A stretch of 64,000 nucleotides of DNA from Parcubacteria bacterium C7867-004 (GCA_001189075.1 LFCN01000006.1:237219-301218), one strand, 5' to 3'; shown: positions 4,737 to 52,244, numbered from the stretch's first letter. Translations and numbers: made by a program. The notes: generated by a model not told the origin, from the letters alone.

Positions 4737-5305
4737 TGAACATGCTTTCCATAGAGGACACCAACCGCATGTCTTGGAATGAGGTCGATGAATGCAAAGA
4801 TCGGCTATTCAAGCAGATAGAAGCGGAATTCACTGACCCGGAATCCCTCATAATCGCGCCTCTGCTCCGGACAGGAGGAATTGTCGGCGGCATGCTGTCC
4901 ATAAAGCTTCGGGCGGTTCAGATGCTCCCGCTCCAGTTCAAGTATTTATATAACCCGACAAAGATCAGTCAGTTGCTCTCGATACCCGATTTTCTCGCTG
5001 AGGTGCCTAGCCCCATGAACGTTGTTCTGTGCGAAGGGAATACAAGCTCAGGCTCAACCGCGATAAAGGCATCCGCCGCGATACGTGAGAAATATCCGCA
5101 TGCAAAAGTTTACTTAGCTACGCTGACGAAAGTGTTCGGCGGCCCTGAGGAGCTCGAAGGCATAGAAAAGATATTCTATGGTCGCCAGACAGATGAAGGA
5201 TTTAAAGCTACTGCTGAAGAAAAGGAAAGCCTTGATCTAAGAGAAGGGGTTACCGTTTTCCCATGGGAAAATGCTGACGACGAACTCTCCGATCTAAATG
5301 CCTAG
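4736..5305 (+). CDS. phosphoribosyltransferase-like fold protein (degenerate PRPP motif)
   Basis: NVVLCEGNTSSGSTA resembles the type-I PRTase PRPP loop, but the acidic pair is replaced by EG. Start overlaps the previous stop (TAATG). Confidence 0.4.
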   Translation: MNMLSIEDTNRMSWNEVDECKDRLFKQIEAEFTDPESLIIAPLLRTGGIVGGMLSIKLRAVQMLPLQFKYLYNPTKISQLLSIPDFLAEVPSPMNVVLCEGNTSSGSTAIKASAAIREKYPHAKVYLATLTKVFGGPEELEGIEKIFYGRQTDEGFKATAEEKESLDLREGVTVFPWENADDELSDLNA

Positions 5306-5331
5306 AACAGACTGCTGGTCCTTGAGCCTCT

Positions 5332-5640
5332 CTATTTCTTAGATCGCTTGCTGAGCACCCCTCGCACCGAAGGACTCACCGCTTTATCCTTGCGGTGGAT
5401 ACAACCGATCCAGCAACAGGGACGGCGCACACCTTCCTTGAGCTTGCTGATAAGACACTCTCGATGCTCCTTTCTCGTCTCCTCCTTCTTTACGGAGATA
5501 ACCCAGCAGATCCATTCATTGCGCGCGAGCGGCGTAAGACTCTCCCAGGCAGCGCGTGCGGCCTTGCTTGAGGAAAGAGCCTTTTGGATATCTGAAGGTA
5601 GTGCGTGGGCGGTACCCGCGGAGATTGTTATCGTAGCCAT
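5332..5640 (-). CDS. YdeI/OmpD-associated family protein
   Basis: ~100 aa. C-terminal ...ARNEWICWVISVKKEETRKEHRECLISKL is typical of the YdeI (DUF1905-associated) family. Start taken at MATITIS. Confidence 0.55.
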   Translation of the reverse strand: MATITISAGTAHALPSDIQKALSSSKAARAAWESLTPLARNEWICWVISVKKEETRKEHRECLISKLKEGVRRPCCWIGCIHRKDKAVSPSVRGVLSKRSKK

Positions 5641-10270: not shown

Positions 10271-10474
10271 CTAGACGCGCGAGACATTCACCGCGTAGGG
10301 GCCTTTCTTGCTCTCGGTCACGTCGAACGTGACCTTGTCACCCTTCTTCAATTCTTTGAAGGTGAGCGACTTGAGAGCATCGGCATGGAAGAAGAGTTGG
10401 TCTTCGATCCCAACCCGGCGAATATAGCCGAAGTTACGGTCGACGAGCTCTACAATAACGCCTTTTTGCAACAT
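10271..10474 (-). CDS. csp: cold-shock protein (CspA family)
   Basis: 67 aa with the RNP1-like GYGFI motif region (NFGYIRR...LFFH). Confidence 0.9.
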   Translation of the reverse strand: MLQKGVIVELVDRNFGYIRRVGIEDQLFFHADALKSLTFKELKKGDKVTFDVTESKKGPYAVNVSRV

Positions 10475-10511
10475 ACGAGTGGAATGAGTGCGGTTAGTAA
10501 TCTGTGCTCCC

Positions 10512-10540
10512 TAACGAAAGCGCGCCCAGAGGGCGCGCTT
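10512..10540. terminator. intrinsic terminator
   Basis: AAGCGCGCCCagagGGCGCGCTTTT. Same CAGAG loop as the 10217 terminator. Confidence 0.6.
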
Positions 10541-10547
10541 TTCGTCG

Positions 10548-10748
10548 TTAGATCTTGCTGACCTGGATAGCGTTTGGTCCCTTCGGGCTCTCACCGACCT
10601 CGAACGTCACCTTGTCGCCGACACGGAGGTCGTCGAAGTGTACGTTAACGAGTTCGTTCGAGTGAAAGAAGAGGTCCTTAGCCATCCCCTCAGCCTTGAT
10701 GAATCCGAATCCCTTGTCGGTAAGACCGGCAATTGTTCCTTCCTGCAT
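10548..10748 (-). CDS. csp: cold-shock protein (CspA family)
   Basis: MQEGTIAGLTDKGFGFIKAEG...LFFH. A second tandem csp paralog with a long 5' leader. Confidence 0.9.
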   Translation of the reverse strand: MQEGTIAGLTDKGFGFIKAEGMAKDLFFHSNELVNVHFDDLRVGDKVTFEVGESPKGPNAIQVSKI

Positions 10749-10940
10749 ACAATTTTGATACGAGCGATGCACCTGATAACAATCAAGTGCAGGAGGCTGG
10801 CATTGGAAACTCGACGCGACTTCCGTTCGACAGCACTGCGATTTGATAAGTCAAATCTACCATGAATGATTTTTTCTGTCAATCATTCGTGCTTCTGTCG
10901 ATTGACGTTCCGTAGTAGCTCGGCTACGGTTCAAGTACTC

Positions 10941-11153
10941 ATGAAAGAGTCCATTACCAACACCGTCTACCAGCACCGGAGCGTGCGCGGCGTAACACAG
11001 GAGGAATTCGCCGACGCGGTCGGCGTGAGTCGCCAGACCGTGATAGCGATCGAGAAGGGGAACTACGCTCCATCGGTCGCGCTCGCGCTGCGCATCGCCC
11101 GCTATTTCAAGGTGCCGGTAGAGACGCTATTCTCACTACGTCATCATGCATAA
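10941..11153 (+). CDS. XRE-family HTH transcriptional regulator
   Basis: VRGVTQEEFADAVGVSRQTVIAIEKG is a classic Cro/C1-type HTH. Confidence 0.8.
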   Translation: MKESITNTVYQHRSVRGVTQEEFADAVGVSRQTVIAIEKGNYAPSVALALRIARYFKVPVETLFSLRHHA

Positions 11154-11508
11154 CGCCTATCTCGAAGGAGCGACCGTGCTCGCGCTTGCGGGCCTCTCGC
11201 TCGTACTGCTCGATCCGTTCCATATCTGGATGCCGGACATGGCGTACATGATTGTGCTCTGCTGCCTGGTAGCAGCATTCGGCGCGTTCGCGGCGTTCGT
11301 GCTCTGCGAGCGGGCAGGCGACGAGCGGGAAGATGCGCACCGGATGCTTTCAGGCCGCATGGCCTTCCTAGCCGGAAGCGGAGTGCTGGTTGCGGGCATC
11401 GTGCTTCAGGGTCTTACGGGACCGATCGATCCGTGGCTCATTTATGCGCTTTGCGCGATGGTATTCGCGAAGCTGGCGGCACGCGCTTATAGCGATCGGC
11501 TGGGGTAG
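11146..11508 (+). CDS. membrane protein (partner of XRE regulator)
   Basis: Overlaps the XRE gene by 8 nt. Three or four hydrophobic helices. Confidence 0.5.
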   Translation: MHNAYLEGATVLALAGLSLVLLDPFHIWMPDMAYMIVLCCLVAAFGAFAAFVLCERAGDEREDAHRMLSGRMAFLAGSGVLVAGIVLQGLTGPIDPWLIYALCAMVFAKLAARAYSDRLG

Positions 11509-11523
11509 GTGGGGATAACGAAT

Positions 11524-11544
11524 GTAAAGCAGGCTTTACATCGA
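11524..11544. promoter_or_regulatory. perfect 9-bp inverted repeat (candidate operator)
   Basis: ATGTAAAGCaggCTTTACAT sits ~50 nt upstream of the Met-rich gene. A second IR, CTTAGGGgaatacCCCTAAG, lies at 11561..11579. Confidence 0.35.
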
Positions 11545-11592
11545 GTACGGGAGCTCTATACTTAGGGAATACCCCTAAGTACTATTCATTCC

Positions 11593-11901
11593 ATGGATTC
11601 AGATATGCAGAGCAAGTCGCACGTTATTCCCGTAGTTATCGGTATCATCGTTCTTGTACTCATCGGCGGTGTCGCGTACGCCATGATGAATAAGGAGGCG
11701 ATGATGATGGAGAAGAAGGACGCCATGATGGAGGAGAAGAAGATGGAAGGCGAGGGAAAGATGATGGAAGAGAACAAGATGATGGAGAACGGATCTTCCT
11801 CGGACACTATGATGAAGGGCGAGACGATGATGAAAGCCGATGATTCAGGAATGATGATGAAGGCTGAGTCAGGTGCGATGATGGACACCCCGACGAACTA
11901 A
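11593..11901 (+). CDS. membrane-anchored methionine-rich low-complexity protein
   Basis: One TM helix, then ~70 residues containing ~28 Met in MMxxKK / MMEE repeats. Confidence 0.6.
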   Translation: MDSDMQSKSHVIPVVIGIIVLVLIGGVAYAMMNKEAMMMEKKDAMMEEKKMEGEGKMMEENKMMENGSSSDTMMKGETMMKADDSGMMMKAESGAMMDTPTN

Positions 11902-11906
11902 GCTCG

Positions 11907-12617
11907 ATGGATACGATCTTCCTCGCAACCGCATTCCTGGCCGGCGTGGTCAGCTTCCTTGCGCCCTGTGTGCTCCCGATCATACCGGGATTCCTCGCGT
12001 ATCTCGCAGGATCGACATCTGCGGATTCCCCGAATCGGCGCCGTGACATATTCGTGAACAGCGTGTTCTTCGTTCTCGGATTCTCGGTGGTATTCGCGCT
12101 GCTCGGTATCTTGCTCCAGACGGTGCTTGCGAGCATCGGCGGGGAGGTGCAGAGCGGGCTCTCGAAACTCGGCGGGCTCGTGATCATCTTCTTCGGTCTC
12201 TATCTCACGGGATTGATCAAGATTGCGTTCCTTGAGCGGGATCATAAGGTGCTCGTGAAGAAGAAGTTCTCCTCGCGGTACCTGACCTCGTTCGTGTTCG
12301 GAACGGCATTCGCGGTGGGATGGACGCCATGCGCGGGCGCAGTACTCGGCAGCATCCTCGGACTCGCGGCGTCAGCCCCGGTCTCCGCGTTCTTCCTGCT
12401 GCTCTCCTATGCGCTCGGACTCGGCATGCCGTTCCTGCTAGTCGGCCTCTTCACGGCGCAGGCGACGCGGTTCATCGACCGATACGCAGGCGCGTTCGTG
12501 TACGTGAACAAGCTGTTCGGTGTGGTCCTGGTGCTACTCGGCATCCTCGTGTTCACCGAGAGCCTCTCGCTCGTGGGCAACTTCGACTTCGTGAATTCCT
12601 TTATTCTTAGCCGCTAG
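11907..12617 (+). CDS. ccdA: cytochrome c-type biogenesis / thiol-disulfide transporter CcdA (DsbD family)
   Basis: N-terminal LAPCVLP Cys, a second ...GWTPCAG Cys, and ~6 TM helices, typical of CcdA. Confidence 0.85.
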   Translation: MDTIFLATAFLAGVVSFLAPCVLPIIPGFLAYLAGSTSADSPNRRRDIFVNSVFFVLGFSVVFALLGILLQTVLASIGGEVQSGLSKLGGLVIIFFGLYLTGLIKIAFLERDHKVLVKKKFSSRYLTSFVFGTAFAVGWTPCAGAVLGSILGLAASAPVSAFFLLLSYALGLGMPFLLVGLFTAQATRFIDRYAGAFVYVNKLFGVVLVLLGILVFTESLSLVGNFDFVNSFILSR

Positions 12618-12620
12618 CTT

Positions 12621-13733
12621 ATGACTGTACGGAATGCCGTAACACTCGCCATCGTCATCGCACTCATTGCGGGCGCGATTTGGTACCTGGAGTCGCTGAA
12701 GCCGAAGACCGTGAGCGTCGATAGGAACGAGAACAGTGTCGAGCACGCGACCACTACCGAGACCGCCGACTACGCGGTCCGGGTAAAGAACTTTCCTCTC
12801 GCGCAGGAACTCGTCGCTCCCGACGGATACCTCAACACCGGCGACAAGCCGATAACCATCGCATCACTTGTCGGGAAGAAGGTCATTCTCGTCGACTTCT
12901 GGACGTACAGCTGTATCAACTGCCAGCGCACGCAGCCATATCTGAACGCCTGGTACGAGAAGTACGCGGACGAAGGTCTCGAGATAATCGGAGTGCATAC
13001 GCCGGAGTTCGACTTCGAGAAGGTGAAGGAGAACGTCGCGCAAGCGGTGGCGAGAGATGGGATAAAGTACCCGGTCGTGCAGGATAATGCGTACGCTACC
13101 TGGAACGCGTATCAGAACCGTTTCTGGCCTCATAAGTACTTGATCGATATCAACGGCCTCATCGTCTATGACCACATCGGCGAAGGCGCGTACGACGAGA
13201 CCGAGCGTGAGATTCAGAAAGCCCTTGCCGAACGCAAGCAGGTCCTGGGGGAAGCAGGCTCAATATCGACGGGTATCGTGGCGCCGAGCGAAACCCCGCG
13301 AGCGGGAAGCGCCGAGACGTACTTCGGGTACGATCGTAACGAATTCCTTGGAAACGGCCGCGCGGGGTCGGCGGGCATGCAGACGCTTACTCGTCCAGAA
13401 AAGGTATTACCGAACGTGCTGTACATGACCGGTGCCTGGAACTTCACGAAAGAGTACGCGGAGAGCGCAAGCGCTTCTTCGATTATCTATTCGTATGACG
13501 CGAAGCAGGTGTTCTTCGTCGCTGAAAGCACAGAAGGTACTACCATAACAGTCTTGCGCGACGGAGTGCCCGTAGCAGCTGAGAAAGGAGCTGATGTAGA
13601 CGCCTCAGGAAGGGTGCTTGTGAAGGAGGCACGCCTCTACAAGCTCATCAATGAGAAAGAGCGCGGCACGCACACTATCGAGATCAAGGTAGAGGGGGCA
13701 GGTCTCAAGGCCTTCACCTTCACGTTCGGCTAA
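12621..13733 (+). CDS. TlpA/ResA-like thiol-disulfide oxidoreductase with extra C-terminal domain
   Basis: TM anchor. WTYSCINCQ is a CxxC thioredoxin fold (ILVDFWTYSCINC...GVHTPEF). ~170-aa β-rich C-terminal extension. Confidence 0.8.
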   Translation: MTVRNAVTLAIVIALIAGAIWYLESLKPKTVSVDRNENSVEHATTTETADYAVRVKNFPLAQELVAPDGYLNTGDKPITIASLVGKKVILVDFWTYSCINCQRTQPYLNAWYEKYADEGLEIIGVHTPEFDFEKVKENVAQAVARDGIKYPVVQDNAYATWNAYQNRFWPHKYLIDINGLIVYDHIGEGAYDETEREIQKALAERKQVLGEAGSISTGIVAPSETPRAGSAETYFGYDRNEFLGNGRAGSAGMQTLTRPEKVLPNVLYMTGAWNFTKEYAESASASSIIYSYDAKQVFFVAESTEGTTITVLRDGVPVAAEKGADVDASGRVLVKEARLYKLINEKERGTHTIEIKVEGAGLKAFTFTFG

Positions 13734-13756: not shown

Positions 13757-14374
13757 ATGGAAACCTCACTCACCGTACTGGTGCTGAACGCGTCGCTTAA
13801 GAAAGGAGGAGCGCCTTCGAATACTGAAGAGGTAGCAAACCTCGTACTCGAGCAGATGAAGAAGTATGGGCCTATCGAGAGCGAGATGCTGCGTCTTGCC
13901 GACATGGATATTCCGGTCGGTCTCGGGTATCGCGAGAGCGAGACCGATGAGTGGCCTATGGTCGTTGAGAAGATACAGAAGGCCGATGTCGTTATCTTTG
14001 CTACACCGATATGGTGGGGCGGGCGATCGAGCCTGATGCAGCGCGCAATCGAGCGCATGGACGCCTTCGATGAGGGTACCGTTCCAGGAGGACGCGGCGC
14101 GCTCCTTAATAAGGTAGCGGGCATCGTTATAACGGGAAGCGAGGACGGCGCGCAGGCGGTTATGGCCGGGCTCATGGAAGTGCTCTCATTCATGAACTTC
14201 ACGCTCCCGCCGCAGTGCTGCACGTACTGGGTCGGCGAGACGGGACTTGATCCTAAGACCGATGCGGAGCGCAGACGGGCGAATCCCGTCGTCCAGCATA
14301 TGGCGGAAGCGACCGGCAAGAACCTTTCCTATTACGCTCGTCTCCTCAAGGAGCATCCGCAGTCGACTTCCTAG
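13757..14374 (+). CDS. NADPH-dependent FMN reductase / flavodoxin-like fold protein
   Basis: LVLNASLKKGG...VVIFATPIWWGG flavodoxin-like motif. Confidence 0.7.
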   Translation: METSLTVLVLNASLKKGGAPSNTEEVANLVLEQMKKYGPIESEMLRLADMDIPVGLGYRESETDEWPMVVEKIQKADVVIFATPIWWGGRSSLMQRAIERMDAFDEGTVPGGRGALLNKVAGIVITGSEDGAQAVMAGLMEVLSFMNFTLPPQCCTYWVGETGLDPKTDAERRRANPVVQHMAEATGKNLSYYARLLKEHPQSTS

Positions 14375-14397: not shown

Positions 14398-14874
14398 ATG
14401 GAAAAGAACCACATCATCGCGGCGGTGCTGTTCGTTATAGTCGGTATCGGCATACTCGCGCTCGTGCCCCCTCCACAATCAGTCATGGTAGAGCAGGGAA
14501 CACCTGCTGATACGAGCGTACTTATAGGTACGTTCGAAGGCACCACGCCTTGCGCTGACTGTCCCGGCATCAAGACCGAGCTCACGCTCGTCAAGGACGC
14601 CCCGGACGCCATGGGTGGAACTTATCGGCTCTCGATGACGTACCTCGAGCGGGACGTCGAGCCGTACGTTACGGCAGGAACCTGGATGTTCGTAGAGGGA
14701 ACCGCAACCGACCCGAACGCAACCGTCATTGCACTCGATGCGGACAAGCCGGATCAGCAGCAGAAGTATCAGGTAACGAGCGAGACAACCGTCCGCATGC
14801 TCGACAAGGACGGAAAGACGATTGATTCTTCGCTTCCGTTCGATCTGACGCTCCGCACCGAGACCGGAAGCTAA
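14398..14874 (+). CDS. NlpE N-terminal domain (YbaY-like) protein
   Basis: TM/signal region, then GTFEGTTPCADCPGIKTELTL...GTYRLSMTY fits the NlpE_N CxxC β-barrel. Confidence 0.6.
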   Translation: MEKNHIIAAVLFVIVGIGILALVPPPQSVMVEQGTPADTSVLIGTFEGTTPCADCPGIKTELTLVKDAPDAMGGTYRLSMTYLERDVEPYVTAGTWMFVEGTATDPNATVIALDADKPDQQQKYQVTSETTVRMLDKDGKTIDSSLPFDLTLRTETGS

Positions 14875-15464: not shown

Positions 15465-16382
15465 ATGAAATACCTCGCCCTACTTATACTCGCAATCCTA
15501 TTCGTTCCTCAGTCAGCCCTGGCGGCGGTGACCAAGCCAACTGCTACGACCTCAACCATCTCAGCAGATACCAACTGGTCCTTCAATCGGCTCGGTAAGG
15601 GGATCAATGTAGGGAGCCAGATTGAGAAACAGGTTGAATATACCGAGGACGAGCTCGTAAACGCATATCGCTATAAGAAGGGAAAGCTTGCGAATCACGA
15701 GCAATACAGCAGCGGCGTTAAAGTCGACAAGAACGATCTTGCAGTCTGGAATATTTTCGAGGGTATCTCGGGAAAGGCGTTCGCCGAGAAGTACGTATAC
15801 GCTCTTCTCACCTATAAGGAACCCCAAAGTGCCTATCTCGCGTACGTACAGACTCTGGCATCGAAGGATAAGTCCTGGCAGCTGAGCGTTAACGTGAATG
15901 CAGTTGATCTGAATAACAAGAAGTGGACGCGGGACATGGCTATCACGCTCGTGCACGAATACGCCCACATCCTCACCCTGAACAATGCACAGATGAAGAA
16001 GGGTAAGGGACTTGAGGCCTCATGTCTGAAAGTGGGAGATACGTTCTGGGTAGCCCGGTACGGCTGCACTAAAGAAGATTCCTATCTTGGCATGTTCGTA
16101 AAGGCATTCTGGACTCCGGCAGACATTATGGCCTATCGTGCCGCACAGAAGAAAGGCGATGAGGCGGGACTCTACAAGGGACAGAACGAAGCATTTGTGA
16201 CTCCGTATGCCGCGACAAGTCCGGTCGAGGACATTGCCGAGTCCTTCACCGACTTCGTGCTCCAGCAGAAGCCGGTGGGCACTACCTCGATACGGGATAA
16301 GAAGATCCACTTCTTCTATCAGTACCCGGAGCTGGTGAAGATGAGGACCCAGATTCGGGCCTCGATATCGAAGTACTTCTAG
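15465..16382 (+). CDS. secreted putative zinc metallopeptidase
   Basis: Signal peptide. HExxH in ITLVHEYAHIL. Downstream DIAESF. Confidence 0.55.
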   Translation: MKYLALLILAILFVPQSALAAVTKPTATTSTISADTNWSFNRLGKGINVGSQIEKQVEYTEDELVNAYRYKKGKLANHEQYSSGVKVDKNDLAVWNIFEGISGKAFAEKYVYALLTYKEPQSAYLAYVQTLASKDKSWQLSVNVNAVDLNNKKWTRDMAITLVHEYAHILTLNNAQMKKGKGLEASCLKVGDTFWVARYGCTKEDSYLGMFVKAFWTPADIMAYRAAQKKGDEAGLYKGQNEAFVTPYAATSPVEDIAESFTDFVLQQKPVGTTSIRDKKIHFFYQYPELVKMRTQIRASISKYF

Positions 16383-16389
16383 TAATAAG

Positions 16390-16435
16390 AACAAATGAAA
16401 CGGCCCGCATTGCGGGCCGTTTCATTTGTTCTATA
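16390..16435. terminator. bidirectional intrinsic terminator
   Basis: GAACAAATGAAACGGCCCGCattGCGGGCCGTTTCATTTGTTC long perfect hairpin between convergent genes. Confidence 0.7.
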
Positions 16436-19400
16436 GCTCCTTGTATCGCTCGCGAACGTCTTTGCCTGGCCAGCGGTGATAGAGGACCGGTATGAGCACC
16501 AGGGTGAGCACCATGGAGAACGCGAGACCGAACATGATCGCGAAGGCGAGCGGGCCCCATATCGCCGAGGCGAAGGAGAGAGGGATCATACCGACAACGG
16601 TAACAACCGTAGTAAGAACGATAGGGCGGAAGCGCGAGCTTGCCGCTGCTACAACCACGTCGGTCAGCGACTGATCGGGATTCTGGCGACCGATGCGCGC
16701 TACCGAGTCCATGAGGATGATCGCGTGGTTTATGATCACGCCGGCTAGCGCGATGACGCCGAGCATCGAGGTAAGCGAGAGTGGGGAACCGGTGAGCATG
16801 AGGCCGATGAACACGCCGATGAGCGAGAACGGGATGATGGAAAGGAGGTAGAGGGAATGGCGGAACGAGTTGAACTCAAGCACGAGGATGGCGAGCATGA
16901 GCGCCGCGCCTCCGACGAGCGCGAGGATAAGCTCAAGGAATGACTTGTTAACGTCCTCGCTTTCGCCGCCCTGCTTCACCACAACGCCCTCTGGAAGCTG
17001 GATGTTTTTCATCTGCTTCTGGAACTCGTTCGTGATCTGAATAGGGTTCCCGCCCTTAGCCGCTTCTGCGGAAAGGGTAGCGATACGCTCGCCGTCCTCG
17101 TGACGGATAACGGTATTTGCAGGCTCGTATGAAATAGTCGCGATCGAGCTCAGCGGCACGGGGCCGTTGATGCCGTTCACGGTCAGGCTGCGAACCGCGT
17201 CGATGGTGGTCTCGTTGGTCTCAGACGGATCACGGTACCCGGGGTTGAGATCGAGCTTGGTGCGGACTTCGATATCGTCATCTCCGGTGCGGATGCTGGT
17301 GGCTTCGGTACCGTAAAGCGCAGTACGAAGCAGATCGGCAACCGCAAGCGTCGAGACGCCGAGCTCGCTCGCTTTGGCGGTGTCGAGATTAACGACGAAC
17401 TCGGCGCTGTCGTCCTTGGTCGAGGTGGTGATGTTGGTGGTACCGGGAATGTCGGCGAGGATGCGTTCCGCCTGAGCAACCGCAGTCGCGAGCGCGCCCA
17501 GGTCGTCTCCCGAGAAGGTGGTCGAGACCGCAGCTCCTGACGGAGGACCGCCTTCAGGTTCGGAGACGGTTACGCGCGCGGACGTAATGGATCCCAGCTC
17601 CGTGCGCAGGTCCTCGACGATTTCGGCGCTGGTCTGCTTGCGCTTCTCCTTCAGGTTCACGCTTATGTTCGCAGCGCGGGATCCGCCGAGACCACTCGCA
17701 GCGAACGAGCTTCCGGCACCTACTTCCGTTACGAATGATGCGATGCGGTCGTCCGCGTACAGAAGCTCCTCGACTTCGCGGACGGCAAGGTCGGTCTCCG
17801 AGAGGGAGGTTCCCTGCGGCTTCTCTATCTCGACGTACACGAGATCGACGTCCTCTCCGGGGAAGAACACTACTTTAACTAAGCCGAGAGCCGGCAGCGT
17901 GAGGACAACGAAGAGAAGAACCGTGATGCCGATAAGGAAGCGGCTCTCTTTTTTGCGGTCGCCGAGAATACCGCGCAGGAACTTCTCGTACCATGCCTTA
18001 GCGCGCTCGTTGTATTCCTCCTGACGTATCTCGAGAGGGGAGAGCGTCGGACGGATGATATACATCGAGAAGAGCGGTACGAATCCGAGCGCGACGAAGA
18101 TGCTCGCGAGCAGCACGAAGATAACGGTGAACGGGATCGACGCGAGGAACTGGCCTACGATACCCGAGAGGAAGAAGAGCGGGACGAATACCGCAATCGT
18201 AGTGAAGGTTCCGGCAAATAGTGGCCACGCATATTCCTTGATGGCGGTCACGGCAGCCTTCTTCTTGTCGCCGTATTCCACGAAGCGGGTGTGGATCGCT
18301 TCCACGATAACGATGCCGGAGTCCACGAGGATACCGATCGCGAGGATCAACGAGAAGAGCGATATGAAGTTGATGGTGTTGCCCGACGCTTGTATGCCGA
18401 TGAACGCGATAAGGAACGAGAGCGGTATGGAAATAGCGGCGGCGATGGATTCGCGCCAGCCGAGCGTGAGGAAGAGCATCAGCATCACGAGCGCCACGGT
18501 CTCAAGTCCCGTGCGGGTGAGCTCGGTGAGGTCATGATTCACGTCCTTGGGCGCGTCGTAGGAGATGACGATCTTGGTTCCGGCGAGCGTCGTAGCCTTG
18601 AGCTCCTCGAGCTTTTCTTTTACCTGGTTTCCGGTGGTGACGACGTTTCCGCCGCGGCTCTTGAATACGCTGATGCCGAGCGCTGGAGCTGAGGGTGCGC
18701 CCTCTACCGAAACTCTGGAATATGTGCGCGCGTCGGCCAGTCCGTTCACCACCTTCGCGACGTCGCGAATGTGAAGGGGCGTGCCGCCGGGGCCGGCAAG
18801 CGCGATGCTTCCCACGCGATCAGGATCAGAGAGACCTGCCTCGAGACGGACTGCGTAGGAGATGTCGTTTACCGTTATCGAACCGAGAGGGGAGGCGAGT
18901 CCCGAGGAGCGAATGGCGTTCGTGACGTCGGAGAGCGAAAGGTTGTACTGACGGAGCTTCGATTGCTCGACGATAACGCTCACTTCGCGCTCGCGGACGC
19001 CCGAGAGCGCTACCTCGGACACGCCCGGAATGCGTTCGAGTTCGTCCTTTACGGTCTCTCCGAGCGCGGTTAGTTCAGCAGGCGCAAGCTCGCCCGAGAT
19101 AGACGCGATGATGATCGGCTGGTCGGCGAAGTTAACGTCGGATACGGACGGATCTTCGGCTTCTCCGGGAAGCTCGGGGCGCACCTTCTCTACCTCGTCT
19201 TTGAGGAGCTGTATGGACTTATCGATATCAGCGGACGCATTGAACTCGACGGTCACGTTCGATACGCCGTCGCCTGAGGTCGAGGTTACTTTCGAGACGT
19301 TCTCGATGCCGAGCACGCGATCCTCGACCTTATCGGTTATGAGTCGCTCAACGTCCTCGCTCGAGGCGCCGGGAAGCACCGTCGTTACGATGCCGACCGG

Positions 19401-19529
19401 TATCTGGATCTCCGGAGATGACTCCTTCGGGATAGTTGCCGCAGCGACAACGCCGGCCGCGATAAGCACTACCGCGAGCAGTATCGTGAAGTGGTGCTTA
19501 TTGATGAAGAAGGTCCAGAACTTAGTCAT
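16431..19529 (-). CDS. RND family efflux transporter permease (AcrB/HAE1-like)
   Basis: 1032 aa with 12 TM helices and two large periplasmic loops. Typical RND length and architecture. Confidence 0.9.
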   Translation of the reverse strand: MTKFWTFFINKHHFTILLAVVLIAAGVVAAATIPKESSPEIQIPVGIVTTVLPGASSEDVERLITDKVEDRVLGIENVSKVTSTSGDGVSNVTVEFNASADIDKSIQLLKDEVEKVRPELPGEAEDPSVSDVNFADQPIIIASISGELAPAELTALGETVKDELERIPGVSEVALSGVREREVSVIVEQSKLRQYNLSLSDVTNAIRSSGLASPLGSITVNDISYAVRLEAGLSDPDRVGSIALAGPGGTPLHIRDVAKVVNGLADARTYSRVSVEGAPSAPALGISVFKSRGGNVVTTGNQVKEKLEELKATTLAGTKIVISYDAPKDVNHDLTELTRTGLETVALVMLMLFLTLGWRESIAAAISIPLSFLIAFIGIQASGNTINFISLFSLILAIGILVDSGIVIVEAIHTRFVEYGDKKKAAVTAIKEYAWPLFAGTFTTIAVFVPLFFLSGIVGQFLASIPFTVIFVLLASIFVALGFVPLFSMYIIRPTLSPLEIRQEEYNERAKAWYEKFLRGILGDRKKESRFLIGITVLLFVVLTLPALGLVKVVFFPGEDVDLVYVEIEKPQGTSLSETDLAVREVEELLYADDRIASFVTEVGAGSSFAASGLGGSRAANISVNLKEKRKQTSAEIVEDLRTELGSITSARVTVSEPEGGPPSGAAVSTTFSGDDLGALATAVAQAERILADIPGTTNITTSTKDDSAEFVVNLDTAKASELGVSTLAVADLLRTALYGTEATSIRTGDDDIEVRTKLDLNPGYRDPSETNETTIDAVRSLTVNGINGPVPLSSIATISYEPANTVIRHEDGERIATLSAEAAKGGNPIQITNEFQKQMKNIQLPEGVVVKQGGESEDVNKSFLELILALVGGAALMLAILVLEFNSFRHSLYLLSIIPFSLIGVFIGLMLTGSPLSLTSMLGVIALAGVIINHAIILMDSVARIGRQNPDQSLTDVVVAAASSRFRPIVLTTVVTVVGMIPLSFASAIWGPLAFAIMFGLAFSMVLTLVLIPVLYHRWPGKDVRERYKEL

Positions 19530-43518: not shown

Positions 43519-44196
43519 ATGAAGTATCTATTCGCGTTCGCACTGGCATTGTCTCTCGTAGTCATGCCGGTTTCAGTCAGTGCTCACGAGGTGCAGCAGT
43601 TCGAGATAAATGGTGAGCACTATGAATTCGTCGTTGGTTCGCTTAACGAGCCAGTTACCGTGGATGACAAAACGGGTGTGTACCTGCATGTCCGGGAAGT
43701 CGGCCATGTCGCAGGCGGGGAAGCTGACCACCATGCTGCCGCCGGAGCGCTCGCCGGTCTCGAAGAGACGCTCCAGGTAGAGATCTCAGCGGGTACTGAG
43801 AAGAAGGTGCTCGCGCTCTCGCCGATACATGATGAGCCGGGCGCATACCGCGCTTCCTTCTATCCGACTGTCGCGACCACGTACTCGTATCGCTTCTTCG
43901 GCACGATAGAGGAGACCCCAGTGGACCTCGCCTTCACTTGCAGCCAGGCGGGTCACGCAGTAGCCGAAGAGGACACGAAGGAAGTAGTCCTCTCTGAAGG
44001 TGTGACTCGCATCAGCAAGACGGGCGCGTTCGGTTGCCCGGCTCCAAAGGAAGATCTTGGATTCCCTGAACCAGCCGTAACCATGACCAGTCTCAGGGAT
44101 GATGTCGCGAAGGCGAACACACTCGCTACGGGAGCGATGGGCGTCGCCGTCCTTGCGATCCTCGGCATGGCCTATATCGCAATGCGCAAGAAATAA
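43519..44196 (+). CDS. YcnI-like (DUF1775) secreted copper-binding protein with C-terminal TM anchor
   Basis: Signal peptide. Predicted mature N-terminus begins with His (SA|HEVQ). C-terminal TM. Sits directly upstream of the CopC-CopD gene, as in the Bacillus ycn locus. Confidence 0.5.
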   Translation: MKYLFAFALALSLVVMPVSVSAHEVQQFEINGEHYEFVVGSLNEPVTVDDKTGVYLHVREVGHVAGGEADHHAAAGALAGLEETLQVEISAGTEKKVLALSPIHDEPGAYRASFYPTVATTYSYRFFGTIEETPVDLAFTCSQAGHAVAEEDTKEVVLSEGVTRISKTGAFGCPAPKEDLGFPEPAVTMTSLRDDVAKANTLATGAMGVAVLAILGMAYIAMRKK

Positions 44197-44252
44197 TCGA
44201 GCGTTTGCTCGCGGGGTCTCGGTACTCGGGACCTCGCCGCAAGTCCTTGCAT

Positions 44253-47003
44253 ATGAAACTACTACTCACATCGATACTCGTAGCTTTCGCATTCATCGTT
44301 CTGCCGATGGAAGCATCTGCGCATGCTTCGCCGATAGACTATGCGCCGAAGTCGTCCGCGGGCCTTACGGAAGCTCCCTCAGAGATTAGTATCAGATTCA
44401 GCGAGCGGCTCGAGCCGGGCGCAAGCCGCATCGTTGTCACGGACAGCTCCGGCGCGCGATTATCTACGGGGAATGCCACGGTCGATCCGAGTGATCCTCG
44501 TGTCCTTACGCTCGCTATTCCGCAAAGCAGGGAAGGCACCTTCATTGTTACCTGGAGTGTCGTGTCTTCGGACGACGGGCACTTTACGAAAGGCGGCTAT
44601 ACGTACTTCGTAGGGCAGGAAGACGTGGTAGGGAGTACCACCCCTCAAGTGGAAGTGGTGCAGCTTTCGGCGCTTCCTGAAGCCTCAGCGATATTCGTCG
44701 AACTCTTGGGGAATTCATTCCTGCTCGGCGCCCTATTCCTGTTCGCGTTTTGCATACGCAGGGTGCTTCCGGGCTTTTCCGAGCGGGAACGCTCTGCTAT
44801 CTCGCGGGTATATCTGTCCTTCGTTGCTGTCGGCATCGTATTCGTACTTGGCGGCGGAATATCGCATGTGCTACTTAAGACCCTTGAGCTCGCGAGCCTG
44901 CACGAGATACCGATAGGCGAAGCATTCCCGCTCTATACCGCAACGGTGGCAGGTTCCGCGACGATAGGAAGGGCGCTCGTTGCTCTATCGTTCGGCGTCC
45001 TGTTCCTCTTCCGGCGCCGGATCATCCTGCAGGCTTCAAAGCTCACCCTCTCTGAGGTCGCTCTGTTCCTGCTGCTCTGCGTGTTCGCGTATCTTCGCGC
45101 GAAGGTAAGTCATGCAACCGCTAACCCCTTCTTCCCGGAGCTATCCGTCCTCGTTAATTTCGTGCATCTCATCGGCAAGGATGCCTGGGCCGGCATGTTG
45201 GGCGTTCTCTCCGTGATGCTTCTGGTCCCGACGCTCCGCGCGCACCTTCCCGAACTGCTCCCAAAAGCATTCAAGCTCATGTTGGGAGCCGCCGCGCTTG
45301 TTGCGATAAGCGCCACATATATCGTATGGCTCCATCTCAAGGACTTCTCGAATCTTTCCTCGACGCTCTGGGGCGAGCGATTCGTTCCGCTTGCGATTAC
45401 CGCCCTACTTGCGGTCGGATTACTCACGTACCACGTCCTGAGTAATCGCTTCCGACCGGCGCTATTCAGCCGTTTCCTTGCGTACACACTCCCTGCAGAA
45501 TTCGCAGCCGGCGTACTCGTAGTCTTCTTCTCAAGCCTTCTCATCATCACGTCTCCGCCGCTCGAGATGTCTCGAGGACAAGTATTCAGGGTGAGCGATC
45601 AGGGTATTAAGATCGAGTTTCAGGCGTCGCCGTACGAAGACGAGGCGGGGCTGATAACCGTCACGAGCAAAACGGGAAGCGCTCTCAATCAGCCGACGGC
45701 ATTCCTCGGGACCAATAGCGAAGAGGGGGTACTCCTGGCACTCAAGAAACGCTTCGATGGAGGATACGCGTTCCCGCTCGCACTGCTTCCGCTTGATAAC
45801 CCGAGCACGCTTACCGTAAACGTGTCCCAAGAAGGCGGATATGACGCTCGCGCGAGCTTCAGCGTCTCGCGCGCCAGCCTCATACCGAGCGCCGGGCCGC
45901 CACGCAGCCTGGATGCGTTCACGCTCGTCATGATCGCTGTCGCGGCCGCCGCCGTCATCTTCCTCGTGCTGCTGTATAGGACTTCATCCGCAACGTATCC
46001 CGCGATCGGCAAGCATGCGTGGTTCGCTCCGATACTCGGCATCTTGCTCTTAATCTTTATTTCGAGCCAGCTCATTGCTGGAGCGAAGCTTCTGTTCGGA
46101 AACTCGTATAAGAAGGAGTGTCTGTCAGACGGCAACGCCTGGCACCTCATGCTTCCGTCCAAGGATTCGATACCGCAGTCCTCCATCCCGAGAGAAGGAT
46201 GCATGGCACTCGGCGGCGCGTTCCATATCGCGGACAGCCGCGAATACCAGTACCTGAAGTCTCCCGGAGAGTCGAACGTACACTTCGCGCATGAGCTGAC
46301 CGATCTGCAGGCCGGCATTCCGGTCGATATCGAGTTATCTATCGTCGACGAGGAAGGAAAGGATGCGCTCCTCTCGCTCGTGCATGAGCGTCTCGTGCAC
46401 GCCATGATAACGAGCAAGGACATGAAAGAATTCTGGCACGTGCATCCTGAGCGCCAGGAAGACGGAAGCTTCATCCTTCCATTCACATTCCCGCGCTCGG
46501 GAGAATATCTGCTCGCGCTCGATTACACGAACGGGCTCTCTTCGGTGACCGAGACGTTTCCTCTGGCGGTAGCGGGTTCGATTCCTCAAGATCCTCAGCC
46601 TGCTCTCTATCCGTCGCCCGAAAAGATAGATAACTATGAGATCCGCCTCGAGCACTCGCTGCTGTTCGTAGGCCGAAAAGAAACGTTTACGTACCGCATA
46701 ACGCGCAACGGGGAAGACGTTACCGATCTTGCGCCGTATCTGGGGGCCGCGATGCATCTGGCGGTGGTAAAGAACGATCTCTCCGCGTTCATCCATACGC
46801 ATGGGGAAGTGCATCCGTTCGGTACCGTGACCAAACCGCTCCCGACAAGTACGGTGCATCAGCATGCGCCGCCGCCCGCCCGGTTCGGACCCGTAGTAGA
46901 GGCGCACGTCACGTTCCCGAGTCCCGGCACCTACACGATATTCGGCGAATTCAGCCATGAGAGCGTGGTCCGAACCTCATCATTCACCGTTACGGTCGAG
47001 TAA
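44253..47003 (+). CDS. CopC-CopD fusion (YcnJ-like) copper transport protein with extended C-terminal His-rich domains
   Basis: Signal peptide, SA|HASPIDY...VVSSDDGH CopC domain, ~8 TM CopD region, YtkA-like segment, two more TM helices, then a duplicated WHVHPE / IHTHGEVHP domain. Confidence 0.8.
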   Translation: MKLLLTSILVAFAFIVLPMEASAHASPIDYAPKSSAGLTEAPSEISIRFSERLEPGASRIVVTDSSGARLSTGNATVDPSDPRVLTLAIPQSREGTFIVTWSVVSSDDGHFTKGGYTYFVGQEDVVGSTTPQVEVVQLSALPEASAIFVELLGNSFLLGALFLFAFCIRRVLPGFSERERSAISRVYLSFVAVGIVFVLGGGISHVLLKTLELASLHEIPIGEAFPLYTATVAGSATIGRALVALSFGVLFLFRRRIILQASKLTLSEVALFLLLCVFAYLRAKVSHATANPFFPELSVLVNFVHLIGKDAWAGMLGVLSVMLLVPTLRAHLPELLPKAFKLMLGAAALVAISATYIVWLHLKDFSNLSSTLWGERFVPLAITALLAVGLLTYHVLSNRFRPALFSRFLAYTLPAEFAAGVLVVFFSSLLIITSPPLEMSRGQVFRVSDQGIKIEFQASPYEDEAGLITVTSKTGSALNQPTAFLGTNSEEGVLLALKKRFDGGYAFPLALLPLDNPSTLTVNVSQEGGYDARASFSVSRASLIPSAGPPRSLDAFTLVMIAVAAAAVIFLVLLYRTSSATYPAIGKHAWFAPILGILLLIFISSQLIAGAKLLFGNSYKKECLSDGNAWHLMLPSKDSIPQSSIPREGCMALGGAFHIADSREYQYLKSPGESNVHFAHELTDLQAGIPVDIELSIVDEEGKDALLSLVHERLVHAMITSKDMKEFWHVHPERQEDGSFILPFTFPRSGEYLLALDYTNGLSSVTETFPLAVAGSIPQDPQPALYPSPEKIDNYEIRLEHSLLFVGRKETFTYRITRNGEDVTDLAPYLGAAMHLAVVKNDLSAFIHTHGEVHPFGTVTKPLPTSTVHQHAPPPARFGPVVEAHVTFPSPGTYTIFGEFSHESVVRTSSFTVTVE

Positions 47004-47037
47004 CGCTATGCAGTACGCGCACATATTTCGGTAGGGT

Positions 47038-47619
47038 ATGATACCAGTCATGACACTCGACCAATTCTCAGCTCTGCTCTCGATCGGATTACTCGCGATA
47101 AGTGGTACCGTGCTTATCGGTACGGTGCTGTATTTCCTCGTCCCATCGGTGCGAAGGCACGTAGAGCGGCATACCTATCGGCAGTTCATCGCTGTTCTCG
47201 GACTTCTGTCTGCTGCGTCAATCGTCGGCGCGCTGATCTACCAGCTCGCGTATCTCACCCCGGTCTGCGAACTCTGCTGGTGGCAGCGTATCTTCCTCTT
47301 CCCGATAAGCGTGATCGCGGGTGTCGCGTACTGGTACAAGACTAAGGAAGCACATATCACCATCGGCATACTCGCGCTCTTCGGTCTCTTCTACGCTTCC
47401 TACCATTACTACTACCACTTCCAGGGCCTCGTCCTCGGCAACACGCTCGCGCTGCCATGCTCGTCGGGCGGTCTCCTGCCGGCCTGTACTGACTCGCCGA
47501 TACTGACGTTCGGGTTCGTAACCATCCCGCTCATGGGAATCCTAGTATTCGGCAGCATGCTCATACTCGCTGCATTCGCCCATGTGGCGGCAAAACGGGA
47601 GCAAAGGACAGGTGTGTAG
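47038..47619 (+). CDS. DsbB-family disulfide oxidoreductase (BdbC-like)
   Basis: Four TM helices. CELC in the first loop. C...C (CSSGGLLPAC) in the second loop. Confidence 0.6.
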   Translation: MIPVMTLDQFSALLSIGLLAISGTVLIGTVLYFLVPSVRRHVERHTYRQFIAVLGLLSAASIVGALIYQLAYLTPVCELCWWQRIFLFPISVIAGVAYWYKTKEAHITIGILALFGLFYASYHYYYHFQGLVLGNTLALPCSSGGLLPACTDSPILTFGFVTIPLMGILVFGSMLILAAFAHVAAKREQRTGV

Positions 47620-47640
47620 AAATTGCTATACTCTTCCCAT

Positions 47641-48291
47641 ATGACAACGAAATCAATGCTATGGACGGGCGGGATTGTGATCGTAGTTCTCGGGTTCGCG
47701 TTCGCGCTCTCCCTGCTCGGTACGAAGCCTGCGGCAGGCGTTGCGATCCCGCTTCCGCCGGTCACCGCTGACGATCACGTCAAAGGAGCGGAGAACGGCA
47801 GGGTCACGGTCGTCGAGTATCTCGATCTCGAATGCGCTGCCTGCGCCGCGTACTATCCGCTCGTGAAGCAGATGGAAGAGGAGTTCGGGGACCGCGTAAC
47901 CTTCGTCGTACGCTATTTCCCGCTCCAGGGCCACATCAACGGGTATCCTGCAGCGCTCGCAGCAGAGGCTGCGAGCCGCCAGGGAAAGTTCTGGGAAATG
48001 CACGATCTTCTGTTCGAGAACCAGAAGGAGTGGGGAGGAAAGCAGTCGGCTACTCCTGAAGTCTTTGAAACCTATGCACAGAAAATCGGCCTCAATATGG
48101 AGCAGTTCAAGACGGATTTCGCGTCCGAGAGCGTGAAGGAGCGTGTCGAACGAAACAAGACGGAGGCCCGGGACCTGAAGCTCAACGGCACGCCGTCGTT
48201 CTTCCTCCAGGGGCTGCAAATCGCGAGCCCGCCGTCACCTGAAGCTTTCCGTGCGCTTATCCAGGCAGAGCTTGATCGCACTGCGTCATAA
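47641..48291 (+). CDS. DsbA-family thiol:disulfide oxidoreductase
   Basis: TM anchor and a thioredoxin fold with the CAAC active site (LECAACAAY). Confidence 0.8.
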   Translation: MTTKSMLWTGGIVIVVLGFAFALSLLGTKPAAGVAIPLPPVTADDHVKGAENGRVTVVEYLDLECAACAAYYPLVKQMEEEFGDRVTFVVRYFPLQGHINGYPAALAAEAASRQGKFWEMHDLLFENQKEWGGKQSATPEVFETYAQKIGLNMEQFKTDFASESVKERVERNKTEARDLKLNGTPSFFLQGLQIASPPSPEAFRALIQAELDRTAS

Positions 48292-48312
48292 CTGACCCTA
48301 CTACCTATATCT

Positions 48313-49041
48313 ATGGAACACGAACCAACCCCAAAGGCCGCATCAAACGTTGCGCTCACGACCCCGGTCGCGATACTTATCGGTTCGCTGATAATTGCCG
48401 GAGCGATACTCATAACCAAGTACGCGCCTAATCCGCTTGGAGGAGTAGCGGCTCAAGCGGAAGAGAAAGTGAATCTTGAGGCGATGCGTCCGGTTACCGC
48501 TGAAGATCACATCCGTGGCAATCCCGACGCGCCGGTAAAGATAGTCGCGTATTCCGATACCGAGTGCCCGTTCTGCAAGCGTTTCCATGACACCATGATG
48601 GAGGTTATGGCCACCTATGGCGCAGAGGGGAAAGTAGCGTGGGTATATCGCCATTTCCCGCTCGATCAGCTCCATCAGAGCGCACGCGCAGAAGCGGTCG
48701 CTACCGAATGTGCGGCAGAGCAGGGAGGCGATGAGGTGTTCTGGAAGTACGTCGACCGGATGATGGAGATAACCCCTTCGAACGACGGGCTCGATCCCAG
48801 CGAGCTTCCGAAGATCGCCGCATTCGTCGGACTCGACGTCACCGCATTCAATGCCTGCGTCTCGTCTGACAAGTACGCAAAGAAGATCCAGGACGATATT
48901 GATAACGCGGTGGAAACGGGCGGACGGGGAACGCCGTGGAGCATCATCGTCGGCGCGGACGGCAAGCAGTACCCGCTCTCAGGCGCGCAGCCGATCACGG
49001 CAATCAACAAGCTCGTCGATGTCGCACTCGCCGGTACATAA
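48313..49041 (+). CDS. DsbA-family thiol:disulfide oxidoreductase
   Basis: TM anchor and the CPFC active site (TECPFCKRF). Confidence 0.8.
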   Translation: MEHEPTPKAASNVALTTPVAILIGSLIIAGAILITKYAPNPLGGVAAQAEEKVNLEAMRPVTAEDHIRGNPDAPVKIVAYSDTECPFCKRFHDTMMEVMATYGAEGKVAWVYRHFPLDQLHQSARAEAVATECAAEQGGDEVFWKYVDRMMEITPSNDGLDPSELPKIAAFVGLDVTAFNACVSSDKYAKKIQDDIDNAVETGGRGTPWSIIVGADGKQYPLSGAQPITAINKLVDVALAGT

Positions 49042-51152: not shown

Positions 51153-51632
51153 ATGGAGACCAAAACAGAGCAGGCTATATTCGCCGCGGGGTGTTTCTGG
51201 GGCGTCGAGGCGGCGTTTCTCGCCGTCCCTGGAGTTACGGATGCCGAGAGTGGGTACACGGGAGGACATACGCAGAACCCAACCTATGGCGAGGTATGCA
51301 CCGATACAACCGGGCATGCCGAGGCCGTGCGGGTCACGTTCGATCCAGAAACGGTATCCTTCGAGACACTCGTACGAAAGTTCTTCACGTTGCACGATCC
51401 GACGCAGGTAAATCGACAAGGACCGGATGTGGGAAGCCAGTATCGTTCCGGCGTGTTCTACCTTTCTGACGAGCAAAAAGAGGTCGCGGAAAAGGTGAAG
51501 AGCGAGTATGCGCAGAAACTTGCGCCAAAGGCGGTCGCCACCGAAGTAACCAAGGCGTCAGAATTCTTCCGCGCGGAAGAATACCATCAGCGGTATTTCG
51601 AGAAGCATCCTTCGGCTACCTGCCACATATAG
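51153..51632 (+). CDS. msrA: peptide methionine sulfoxide reductase MsrA
   Basis: GCFWGVE active-site motif. ...HDPTQVNRQG...YHQ... Confidence 0.9.
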   Translation: METKTEQAIFAAGCFWGVEAAFLAVPGVTDAESGYTGGHTQNPTYGEVCTDTTGHAEAVRVTFDPETVSFETLVRKFFTLHDPTQVNRQGPDVGSQYRSGVFYLSDEQKEVAEKVKSEYAQKLAPKAVATEVTKASEFFRAEEYHQRYFEKHPSATCHI

Positions 51633-52243: not shown

Positions 52244-52244
52244 C

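Follow-up and report, generated by a model that had tools for sequence, protein, structure and literature searches.

A small methionine-rich open reading frame (ORF) heads the ccdA operon of Parcubacteria bacterium C7867-004 (GCA_001189075.1, LFCN01000006.1:237219-301218; the whole stretch of 64,000 nucleotides is referred to here as the window). Comparative sequence analysis indicates that this ORF genuinely codes for a protein. The product, designated below the Met-repeat protein, would be a stand-alone copy of an exported module, made of a signal-anchor followed by D-A-M-M-E/K-x-x repeats, which is spread across Patescibacteria. The finding leads to a conserved and regulated five-part module consisting of an XRE repressor, a membrane protein, a Met-repeat protein or thioredoxin, CcdA and DipZ. 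Patescibacteria, which form the Candidate Phyla Radiation (CPR), are tiny, mostly uncultured and have few recognisable stress defences, and to our knowledge the way in which their surface is protected is largely unknown. We tentatively propose, at slightly less than an even chance, that the Met-repeat protein is a sacrificial oxidant sink resembling the MrpX protein and co-regulated with a reducing pathway.

The methionine repeat and its spread in Patescibacteria

The tail of the Met-repeat protein contains 20 methionines in 71 residues (28%; 23 methionines across the full protein) together with 37% D/E/K, and follows an N-terminal hydrophobic signal-anchor. Because methionine makes up just 1.7% of the products of the 21 Pfam-supported window genes, this enrichment of about 16-fold (binomial P about 6e-19) is real, and no second Met-rich stretch came close in the six frames of the 64-kb window. 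An initial annotation, made from the sequence alone, had described the ORF, one transmembrane (TM) helix and a Met-rich tail, all of which were retrieved here; its estimate of about 28 methionines in about 70 residues was too high. It had also called the protein membrane-anchored. The N-terminal hydrophobic helix is present, and anchoring is plausible but not certain because the hydrophobic stretch ends with A-Y-A, which reads as a possible signal-peptidase I site. The ORF was called as a gene in independent assemblies of the same strain; the assemblies L094 and L095 are 100% identical to the window and hence bring no population-level information. An antisense ORF of 100 aa, with many Ile, Ser and Phe residues, covers 11586-11888 and was rejected as the mirror of the ATG-rich repeat; the plus-strand frame, the anchor and the domains are kept in relatives.

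A word-indexed homology search with the single Met-repeat protein returned no match, its own entry included, which is a low-complexity artefact. An exhaustive phmmer search of the same protein against 1.84 billion representative proteins led to the recovery of two matches in total, a 217-aa protein with an anchor, a Met-rich linker and a thioredoxin domain, and an 82-aa peptide corresponding to an anchor and a Met-rich region. For each of them, the next gene downstream is a fused dipZ. A profile of the anchor and the Met-rich region was built from 12 sequences with no folded domain included, and recovered 144 proteins at a cut-off of E <= 1e-3; those with a named source all belong to Patescibacteria lineages. 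The D-A-M-M-E/K repeat is thus found in well over a hundred proteins. Composition and domain counts are given below for 121 of them, namely the 120 best listed and P0122.

The Met-rich tail is a true sequence repeat, with the consensus D-A-M-M-E/K(-x-x) and a unit of about 7 residues, beyond mere biased composition. In 17 linkers, adjacent methionines (MM) were counted 64 times versus 32 ± 4.5 in shuffled sequences, an enrichment of about 2-fold, while the spacings MxM and MxxM were found 2 and 1 times versus 26 and 20, respectively. The 121 database proteins behaved in the same manner (MM, 592 observed versus 298 ± 14 shuffled; MxM, 16 versus 238 ± 14; MxxM, 6 versus 190 ± 13), and the window tail contains 10 MM and no MxM, MxxM or His. 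Successive MM doublets are most often 7 residues apart, single-Met repeats are rare, and the commonest heptads are DAMMEKE, DSMMKKD and KAMMEKE. Over the 121 proteins, Met accounts for 20.8% of the repeat region, Lys and Glu for 14% each, Asp for 12%, Ala for 10% and His for 0.2%, and Cys is absent; within the module, Met overall represents about 20-28% of this region and charged residues about 40%, essentially without His or Cys.

In the window protein, the methionine positions show a weak 7-8-residue periodicity, which is the repeat unit. An amphipathic "Met-stripe" helix was considered and rejected: there is no 3.6-residue periodicity of Met (1926 of 2000 shuffles scored as high), so that the methionines do not lie on one face of a helix. 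AlphaFold2, run on the single sequence, predicted a helix over residues 11-66, continuous with the TM segment, followed by a low-confidence coil (mean predicted local distance difference test score, 69); this prediction does not separate the hypotheses discussed below.

The repeat is associated with various domains. Among the 121 proteins, a WCxxC thioredoxin is present in 98, a cupredoxin in 6, a PG_binding_1 domain in 3 and a Lipoprotein_15 domain in 1, and 8 are stand-alone peptides (<=100 aa). Its commonest form is the tether of a membrane-anchored WCPxC thioredoxin. In P0135, P0168 and P0190, the PG_binding_1 domain is flanked on both sides by long MMKKDDAMM tracts, so the repeat is not solely an N-terminal tether, and at L077:3029-4924 a fused DipZ was found to contain an internal Met-rich linker (GEAMMSADNPAMMSGNNPAM...) ahead of its thioredoxin domain. 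A search of the literature on Met-rich proteins in Patescibacteria/CPR found nothing relevant, and we could not find a published description of the D-A-M-M-E/K repeat, of its wide use at the Patescibacteria surface or of its position at the head of an XRE-controlled ccdA-dipZ module. CcdA, DipZ, XRE repressors and the concept of a Met-rich scavenger peptide are of known kinds.

The gene slot ahead of ccdA/dipZ and its control region

The Met-repeat gene ends 5 nt before ccdA, which is itself separated by 3 nt from the gene of a DipZ-C-type reductase (DipZC); these spacings are those of the initial annotation, and the ccdA assignment is supported by the DsbD_TM match. To describe the neighbourhood, 83 loci were first gathered around DipZC homologues; neighbour counts are given over 89 loci, and L090-L097 were added later. 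An anchor followed by a Met-rich linker and a WCPxC thioredoxin is encoded just before ccdA/dipZ in L003-L006, L013, L023, L025, L026 and L062, and a stand-alone Met-rich peptide of 79-99 aa occupies this slot in L034 and L064. Met-repeat genes before ccdA/dipZ were also found in L084, L085, L090-L092, L096 and L097, which brings the total to about 20 loci. The slot is held by stand-alone forms in the window, L034, L064, L084, L090 and L091. Six further contexts were obtained from the profile matches, and four of these correspond to the same module; among the four, two stand-alone peptides are preceded by the gene of the membrane protein and followed by that of a separate thioredoxin. The conserved order is a small XRE regulator, a 120-aa membrane protein, the Met-repeat gene, ccdA and a DipZ-type reductase, to which many relatives add msrA/msrB. 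The linkage of the Met-rich ORF with ccdA and a thioredoxin gene, as first put forward in the initial annotation, is therefore conserved, and the search which it had recommended, for homologous Met-rich ORFs beside ccdA/tlpA, found homologues at the slot with conservation at the protein level. In two loci, a DM13-domain gene adjoins the module (L096:2944-3372 and L097:1508-3233); that of L097 comes with a multicopper oxidase gene on the opposite strand.

In the closest relatives, in which DipZC is 65% identical (L086-L088, and also L001), the product of the slot gene consists of an anchor, the short Met repeat MMEKDTMMEEKKDGAMMD and a fasciclin domain. A DNA-level alignment with the L086 fasciclin gene covers the promoter region, the anchor and the first repeats of the window gene, and the final codons (P-T-N-stop) of the two genes also match. 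Compared with the L086 gene, the window gene is without the fasciclin domain and without a 75-nt spacer before ccdA, and its repeat tract is of 71 residues versus about 26 in L086 and L087. The window gene thus appears to derive from a fasciclin-domain gene, by loss of the domain and expansion of the repeats. Simple decay is unlikely, because the tract has expanded and because stand-alone forms arose in several distant lineages.

Two genes conserved upstream of the slot may take part in its control (Table 1). The ORF of the XRE regulator spans 10866-11153; its likely true start is at 10941, as in the gene called in the same-strain records. Of the first 89 loci, 15 have a homologue of 66-75 aa at this position, as do L090-L092, L096 and L097. 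The 120-aa membrane protein is kept in 14 aligned loci (27-47% identity), with the invariant residues M29, E55, D59, E60 and K109. Its homologues, of 116-122 aa, always follow a small XRE gene; M29 lies in a W-M-P motif, and an IDPWL motif is near-invariant (alignment A3). No Pfam or NCBIfam family was found for this protein and 13 homologues. It may act as a sensor for the regulator. Just upstream of the XRE gene, two tandem cold-shock-domain genes are located on the minus strand (10271-10772).

Table 1. Coordinates of the Met-repeat operon, its control elements and the window msr genes (positions counted from the first nucleotide of the window).
Feature	Position	Strand	Description
XRE-family helix-turn-helix (HTH) regulator, small	10941..11153	+	Pfam HTH_3, E 1.9e-13; 70 aa
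120-aa multi-pass membrane protein	11146..11508	+	overlaps the XRE gene by 8 nt; candidate sensor/partner of the regulator
Palindrome 1	11522..11541	.	ATGTAAAGC-AG-GCTTTACAT; perfect 9-bp arms; candidate XRE operator
Palindrome 1 counterpart	L012		GCATGTCAAGTTAACTTGACATGC
Palindrome 1 counterpart	L006		ATGTTAAGTTAACTTAACAT
Sigma-70-like promoter (predicted)	11535..11562	+	TTTACA, 16-nt spacer, TATACT; 10/12 consensus matches
Palindrome 2	11559..11581	.	TACTTAGGG-AATAC-CCCTAAGTA; perfect 9-bp arms, 5-nt spacer; overlaps the -10 box
Met-repeat protein	11593..11901	+	102 aa; signal-anchor at about residues 10-30, then 71-residue tail with D-A-M-M-E/K-type repeats
CcdA, membrane thiol-electron transporter	11907..12617	+	Pfam DsbD_TM, E 5.7e-16; 75-82% identical in L086, L087
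DipZ-C-type exported reductase (DipZC)	12621..13733	+	TM anchor, TlpA-like thioredoxin domain (SCINC), Thioredoxin_10 beta-sandwich
NAD(P)H-dependent FMN reductase-like	13757..14374	+	Pfam FMN_red, E 1.5e-22; 23-nt gap after dipZC
Membrane-anchored NlpE N-terminal-domain protein	14398..14874	+	CxxC motif; Pfam NlpE, E 1.7e-20; 23-nt gap
msrA	51153-51632		about 39 kb from the operon; no signal peptide/TM segment
msrB	52245-52652	-	about 39 kb from the operon; no signal peptide/TM segment

The leader of the Met-repeat gene, of 84 nt, contains two perfect inverted repeats with arms of 9 bp each; both had been noticed in the initial annotation, where the second was given 7-bp arms and the leader 80 nt. 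The 20-bp candidate operator of the XRE regulator, ATGTAAAGCAGGCTTTACAT, has similar versions in further loci besides L006 and L012. All loci with an XRE homologue have its core, TGTHAAG-N4-CTTDACA, and no locus without one does. The core lies either just before the slot gene (Met-repeat or thioredoxin) or before the XRE gene itself, and L025 and L090 have two copies each. Those of L090 (L090:3909 and 4340) are operator/promoter copies placed before a stand-alone Met-repeat gene and before a separate thioredoxin gene. In the window, the right arm of palindrome 1 provides the -35 hexamer of the predicted promoter, which would be a strong one; the promoter of relatives reads TTGACA, 16-17 nt, TATACT. 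The natural reading is that palindrome 1 is an operator at which the XRE repressor would occlude the -35 box.

The sequence of palindrome 2 is not conserved in relatives, and a different inverted repeat (TGTTAC...GTAACA) lies a few nucleotides after the -10 box in L086 and L087, near the position of palindrome 2. A transcript hairpin or terminator, as flagged by a terminator scan, was rejected for this non-conserved element: its left arm overlaps the -10 box, so that it is not wholly included in a transcript from that promoter. Both leader palindromes are unique in the 64-kb window with 3 mismatches allowed, and a search for a second copy of either upstream of the window XRE gene found none. 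Inverted repeats with arms of 9 bp or more number 21 in the window and 2-5 in shuffled sequences; the majority are GC-rich hairpins located where genes end, and the two leader ones are of another type.

Possible functions of the repeat

Two exported Met-rich proteins offer a comparison. MrpX of Azospira suillum, with 20% Met and 44% charged residues, is sacrificially oxidised by hypochlorite (PMC4436054), and BcrX of Brucella melitensis is a hypochlorite scavenger (PMC8315932, where peptides of this type are annotated 'MXKDX repeat protein'). Like them, the Met-repeat protein is small and exported, has a high content of Met (about 20-28%) and charged residues (about 40%) with a K-D-x-M flavour and no Cys, and its gene shares an operon with an envelope reducing system and adjoins a regulator paired with a membrane protein. 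It differs from them by a unit of about 7 residues with MM doublets instead of the MXKDX pentapeptide, by the CcdA/DipZ thiol pathway instead of the molybdoenzyme system MsrPQ (YedYZ), by an XRE repressor instead of an extracytoplasmic function (ECF) sigma/anti-sigma pair, and by its Parcubacterium host and the usual use of the repeat as a thioredoxin tether rather than as a free peptide. Neither the MXKDX motif, nor a match to the family models searched, nor co-encoded MsrPQ among the window ORFs scanned was found; by sequence, the Met-repeat protein falls outside the MrpX/BcrX family, yet plausibly works like its members.

According to the oxidant-sink proposal, release of the repressor would lead the cell to export a thiol-reducing pathway together with a dense array of exposed thioethers. 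The methionines of the repeat would react with hypochlorous acid, chloramines or peroxides and would serve as a sacrificial buffer, protecting the cell surface along with the exposed catalytic cysteines, in the way demonstrated for MrpX and BcrX. If true, the MrpX principle would reach beyond Proteobacteria, and the reducing system tied to it would be based on thiols instead of molybdenum.

An association with methionine oxidation is suggested by the neighbours of DipZ. The methionine sulfoxide reductase (Msr) genes msrA and/or msrB adjoin dipZ/dipZC homologues in 21 of the 89 loci, on the same strand except for msrB of L013, and directly follow the module in the Patescibacteria loci L005, L012, L013, L023 and L062. 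Such neighbours occur at several places within L003-L083, e.g. L005:5119-6067, L012:2661-3602, and L060:2699-3244 and 4975-5604. This suggests that DipZ-type proteins belong to the methionine-oxidation response. We know of no physiological substrate of DipZ, and the genomic link between DipZ and Msr represents a lead on its function. An oxidant sink re-reduced with electrons from CcdA and the thioredoxin-like protein was one of the two hypotheses of the initial annotation. The sink itself finds indirect support in the MrpX-like composition and in these msr genes; re-reduction does not, as neither an exported Msr nor MsrPQ was found among the window ORFs scanned. The window msrA and msrB cited in that context do exist, but are remote from the operon and devoid of export signals (Table 1).

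Several observations weigh against an oxidant sink, in addition to the failure to find an exported Msr or MsrPQ. In the Patescibacteria loci, the Msr encoded next to dipZ have no signal peptide or TM segment (maximum hydropathy < 1.0); exported Msr are confined to dipZ loci whose Msr carry Sec/Tat-type signal peptides, mostly with a fused DipZ. The same repeat is also attached to fasciclin, PG_binding_1 and Lipoprotein_15, which are not redox domains, in agreement with the role of a generic spacer, and the window gene, which resembles a fasciclin gene minus its domain, could be a remnant. Finally, the Met-repeat protein matched no NCBIfam or Pfam family among the models searched; an NCBIfam scan of this protein and four relatives at E <= 10 gave spurious weak matches to FliL and CopL and no others.

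Envelope systems composed of CcdA, a surface thioredoxin (Etrx) and MsrAB2 are established in Streptococcus pneumoniae and S. gordonii (PMC3914529, PMC7034828). Here as in these cocci, the cell has a single membrane and CcdA feeds electrons to thioredoxin-fold proteins at its surface, and the genes are linked to msrA/msrB in relatives. However, the streptococcal Msr is external and membrane-anchored whereas the Msr found here and in the Patescibacteria loci examined lack export signals, and the streptococcal systems do not include a Met repeat. The window encodes CcdA and an extracytoplasmic thioredoxin-fold reductase in one operon, to which relatives add a second thioredoxin, of the WCPxC type and bearing the Met repeat; no exported or surface-anchored MsrA/MsrB was found among the window ORFs scanned. 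The thioredoxin domain of DipZC also belongs to the same subfamily as those of SOQ1 of the Arabidopsis thylakoid lumen and NHLRC2 (C(C/S)INC motif; E 1e-18 to 4e-20), and CcdA is the proposed electron donor. A preprint ties SOQ1 to methionine sulfoxide reduction (10.1101/2024.11.01.621559). In SOQ1, the activity is assigned to a Cys-containing C-terminal domain, while that of DipZC has 0 Cys and no NHL propeller accompanies it. One could imagine that the CcdA-DipZC (and WCPxC thioredoxin) pathway has in the D-A-M-M-E/K repeats a dedicated substrate, with a thiol-dependent re-reduction of their oxidised methionines outside the cell requiring neither classical MsrA/B nor MsrP, and that the Thioredoxin_10 domain might serve as a docking site. 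We consider this very unlikely; if true, Patescibacteria would bear a catalytic, regenerable antioxidant coat on their surface and the DipZ family would be assigned a substrate.

Among the other explanations, a passive spacer deserves most attention and is in our opinion unlikely, although far from negligible. The repeat would then be a hydrophilic, partly helical stalk keeping extracytoplasmic domains at a distance from the membrane, and the window ORF a functionless remnant of a fasciclin-domain gene. Such a role is consistent with the attachment of the repeat to domains that are unrelated to each other, namely thioredoxin, cupredoxin, PG_binding_1 (with repeats at either side), Lipoprotein_15 and fasciclin, with the alignment of the N-terminal DNA and last codons of the window ORF to the L086 fasciclin gene in the same slot, and with the long helix predicted by AlphaFold2 from the TM segment to residue 66. 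A mere remnant is difficult to reconcile with the recurrence of domain-less copies at the slot, in six loci or more that belong to divergent lineages (in L090, the copy has an operator of its own), and with a Met tract that is longer after loss of the domain instead of decayed. Moreover, a stalk needs neither 20-28% Met nor strict MM doublets, and the DipZC and NlpE-like proteins of the window, which are also anchored, have ordinary linkers.

Binding of copper was the second hypothesis of the initial annotation, which had proposed a Cu(I)-binding Met-rich chaperone. Met-rich segments bind Cu(I) in Ctr1, CopC, CusF and CueO, and extracellular thioethers could in the same way bind Cu(I)/Ag(I), buffering copper away from CxxC thiols or passing it to copper proteins. 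Like these segments, the repeat is extracytoplasmic and Met-rich, and it is fused to a cupredoxin with a type-1 copper-site signature in 6 of the 121 proteins; besides, the last gene of the operon encodes an NlpE-like CxxC protein, a multicopper oxidase gene lies divergently beside the module in L097, and the window encodes a CopC-domain protein. Cu(I)-binding Mets motifs are clusters of MxM/MxxM, often with His, as in Ctr1, CopC/PcoC, CusF, the CueO insert and PcoE/SilE. In contrast, the window tail has no such cluster, and the repeat consists of adjacent MM flanked by Asp/Glu/Lys, with the MxM and MxxM spacings depleted about 15- to 30-fold relative to shuffles, 0.2-0.6% His and no Cys. Canonical Cu(I) binding is consequently disfavoured, despite the cupredoxin fusions. 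The single cupredoxin context looked up (L093) is outside a ccdA module, the copper genes of the window are 30 kb away, and the recurrent neighbours of the module are msrA/msrB and not copper genes. Methionine oxidation is favoured over copper because msr genes adjoin dipZ and because Cu(I)-site spacings and His are nearly absent; overall, a copper-binding role appears improbable. The copper theme of the initial annotation is partly borne out, by the NlpE_N protein at 14398-14874 and by the CopC-domain protein at 44205-47003; the ORF taken for YcnI (43519-44196) has no Pfam match. The cupredoxin fusions carry the repeat after the anchor (P0149, P0160, P0191, P0227, P0237 and P0240), and L093:4001-4513 is located among housekeeping genes.

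The conservation of the Met-repeat gene beside the XRE and membrane-protein pair, and the invariant Met in the W-M-P motif of the membrane protein, raise the question of a redox sensor, in which oxidation of Met would alter the conformation of the repeat or its contact with the membrane protein and thereby control XRE release or thioredoxin/DipZC activity. We give little credit to this explanation. The Met-repeat gene is missing from L012, where the XRE gene, the membrane protein, the operator and ccdA are all present, and the slot gene of L001 is under a MarR regulator instead. A Met-rich leader peptide, whose translation would sense the methionine supply and attenuate ccdA expression, might be evoked from the 23 ATG codons of a short ORF ending so close to ccdA. 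There is no terminator/antiterminator structure between the ORF and ccdA, and this scenario, which we regard as next to impossible, was ruled out by the export signal of the ORF and by the in-frame fusion of the repeat to folded extracytoplasmic domains in most relatives.

Partner genes and other features of the window

The thioredoxin-like protein of the operon is 100% identical to the NCBI protein AB199_01630. Its C-terminal domain of about 170 aa, regarded as unusual in the initial annotation, turned out to be a known DipZ domain: Pfam PF17991 (Thioredoxin_10) was matched with E 5.7e-30, in addition to Redoxin/AhpC-TSA, and the M. tuberculosis DipZ structures PDB 2HYX and 5CYY were matched with E 8e-61, the former over residues 41-370. 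Its lack of Cys was read from the sequence. Homologues are numerous (7949 at E <= 1e-30 among 8000 candidates scored), and the SCINC active site, FWTYSCINCQRT, is invariant in 40 homologues. Like M. tuberculosis DipZ, the operon combines a CcdA-type membrane domain, a TlpA-like SCINC thioredoxin and a Thioredoxin_10 beta-sandwich; the SCINC motif of DipZ has been described (PMC6107167). Unlike in M. tuberculosis DipZ, the parts are split into ccdA and dipZC, so that by its sequence the pair is a split DipZ, made of two neighbouring genes instead of one polypeptide. Many relatives have a fused DipZ of 550-640 aa.

Judging from its spacing, the FMN reductase-like gene is probably in the same transcript as dipZC. 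In an unrelated metagenome-assembled genome, an FMN reductase homologue with 80% identity directly follows a fused DipZ, the latter being 56% identical (L002:2598-3204); the presence of this gene next to DipZ in both hints at a functional link or at co-transfer. The NlpE-domain gene is the last one on the plus strand, and the next gene converges from the minus strand.

Elsewhere in the window, a region at 44205-49041 encodes a 932-aa protein with an N-terminal CopC domain (44205-47003), followed by DsbB and two DsbA-like genes. Considering these DsbB and DsbA-like neighbours together with CcdA/DipZC, the organism would encode both oxidising and reducing envelope thiol pathways. An oxidative-stress cluster at 51153-54368 groups msrA, a hemerythrin-domain gene, msrB (which is on the minus strand) and a peroxiredoxin, and contains perfect palindromes at 51563-51582 and 51672-51693. 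Another perfect palindrome, with 22-bp arms (16388-16432), lies between the converging genes 15465-16382 (plus strand) and 16431-19529 (minus strand, AcrB-like), and is probably a bidirectional terminator.

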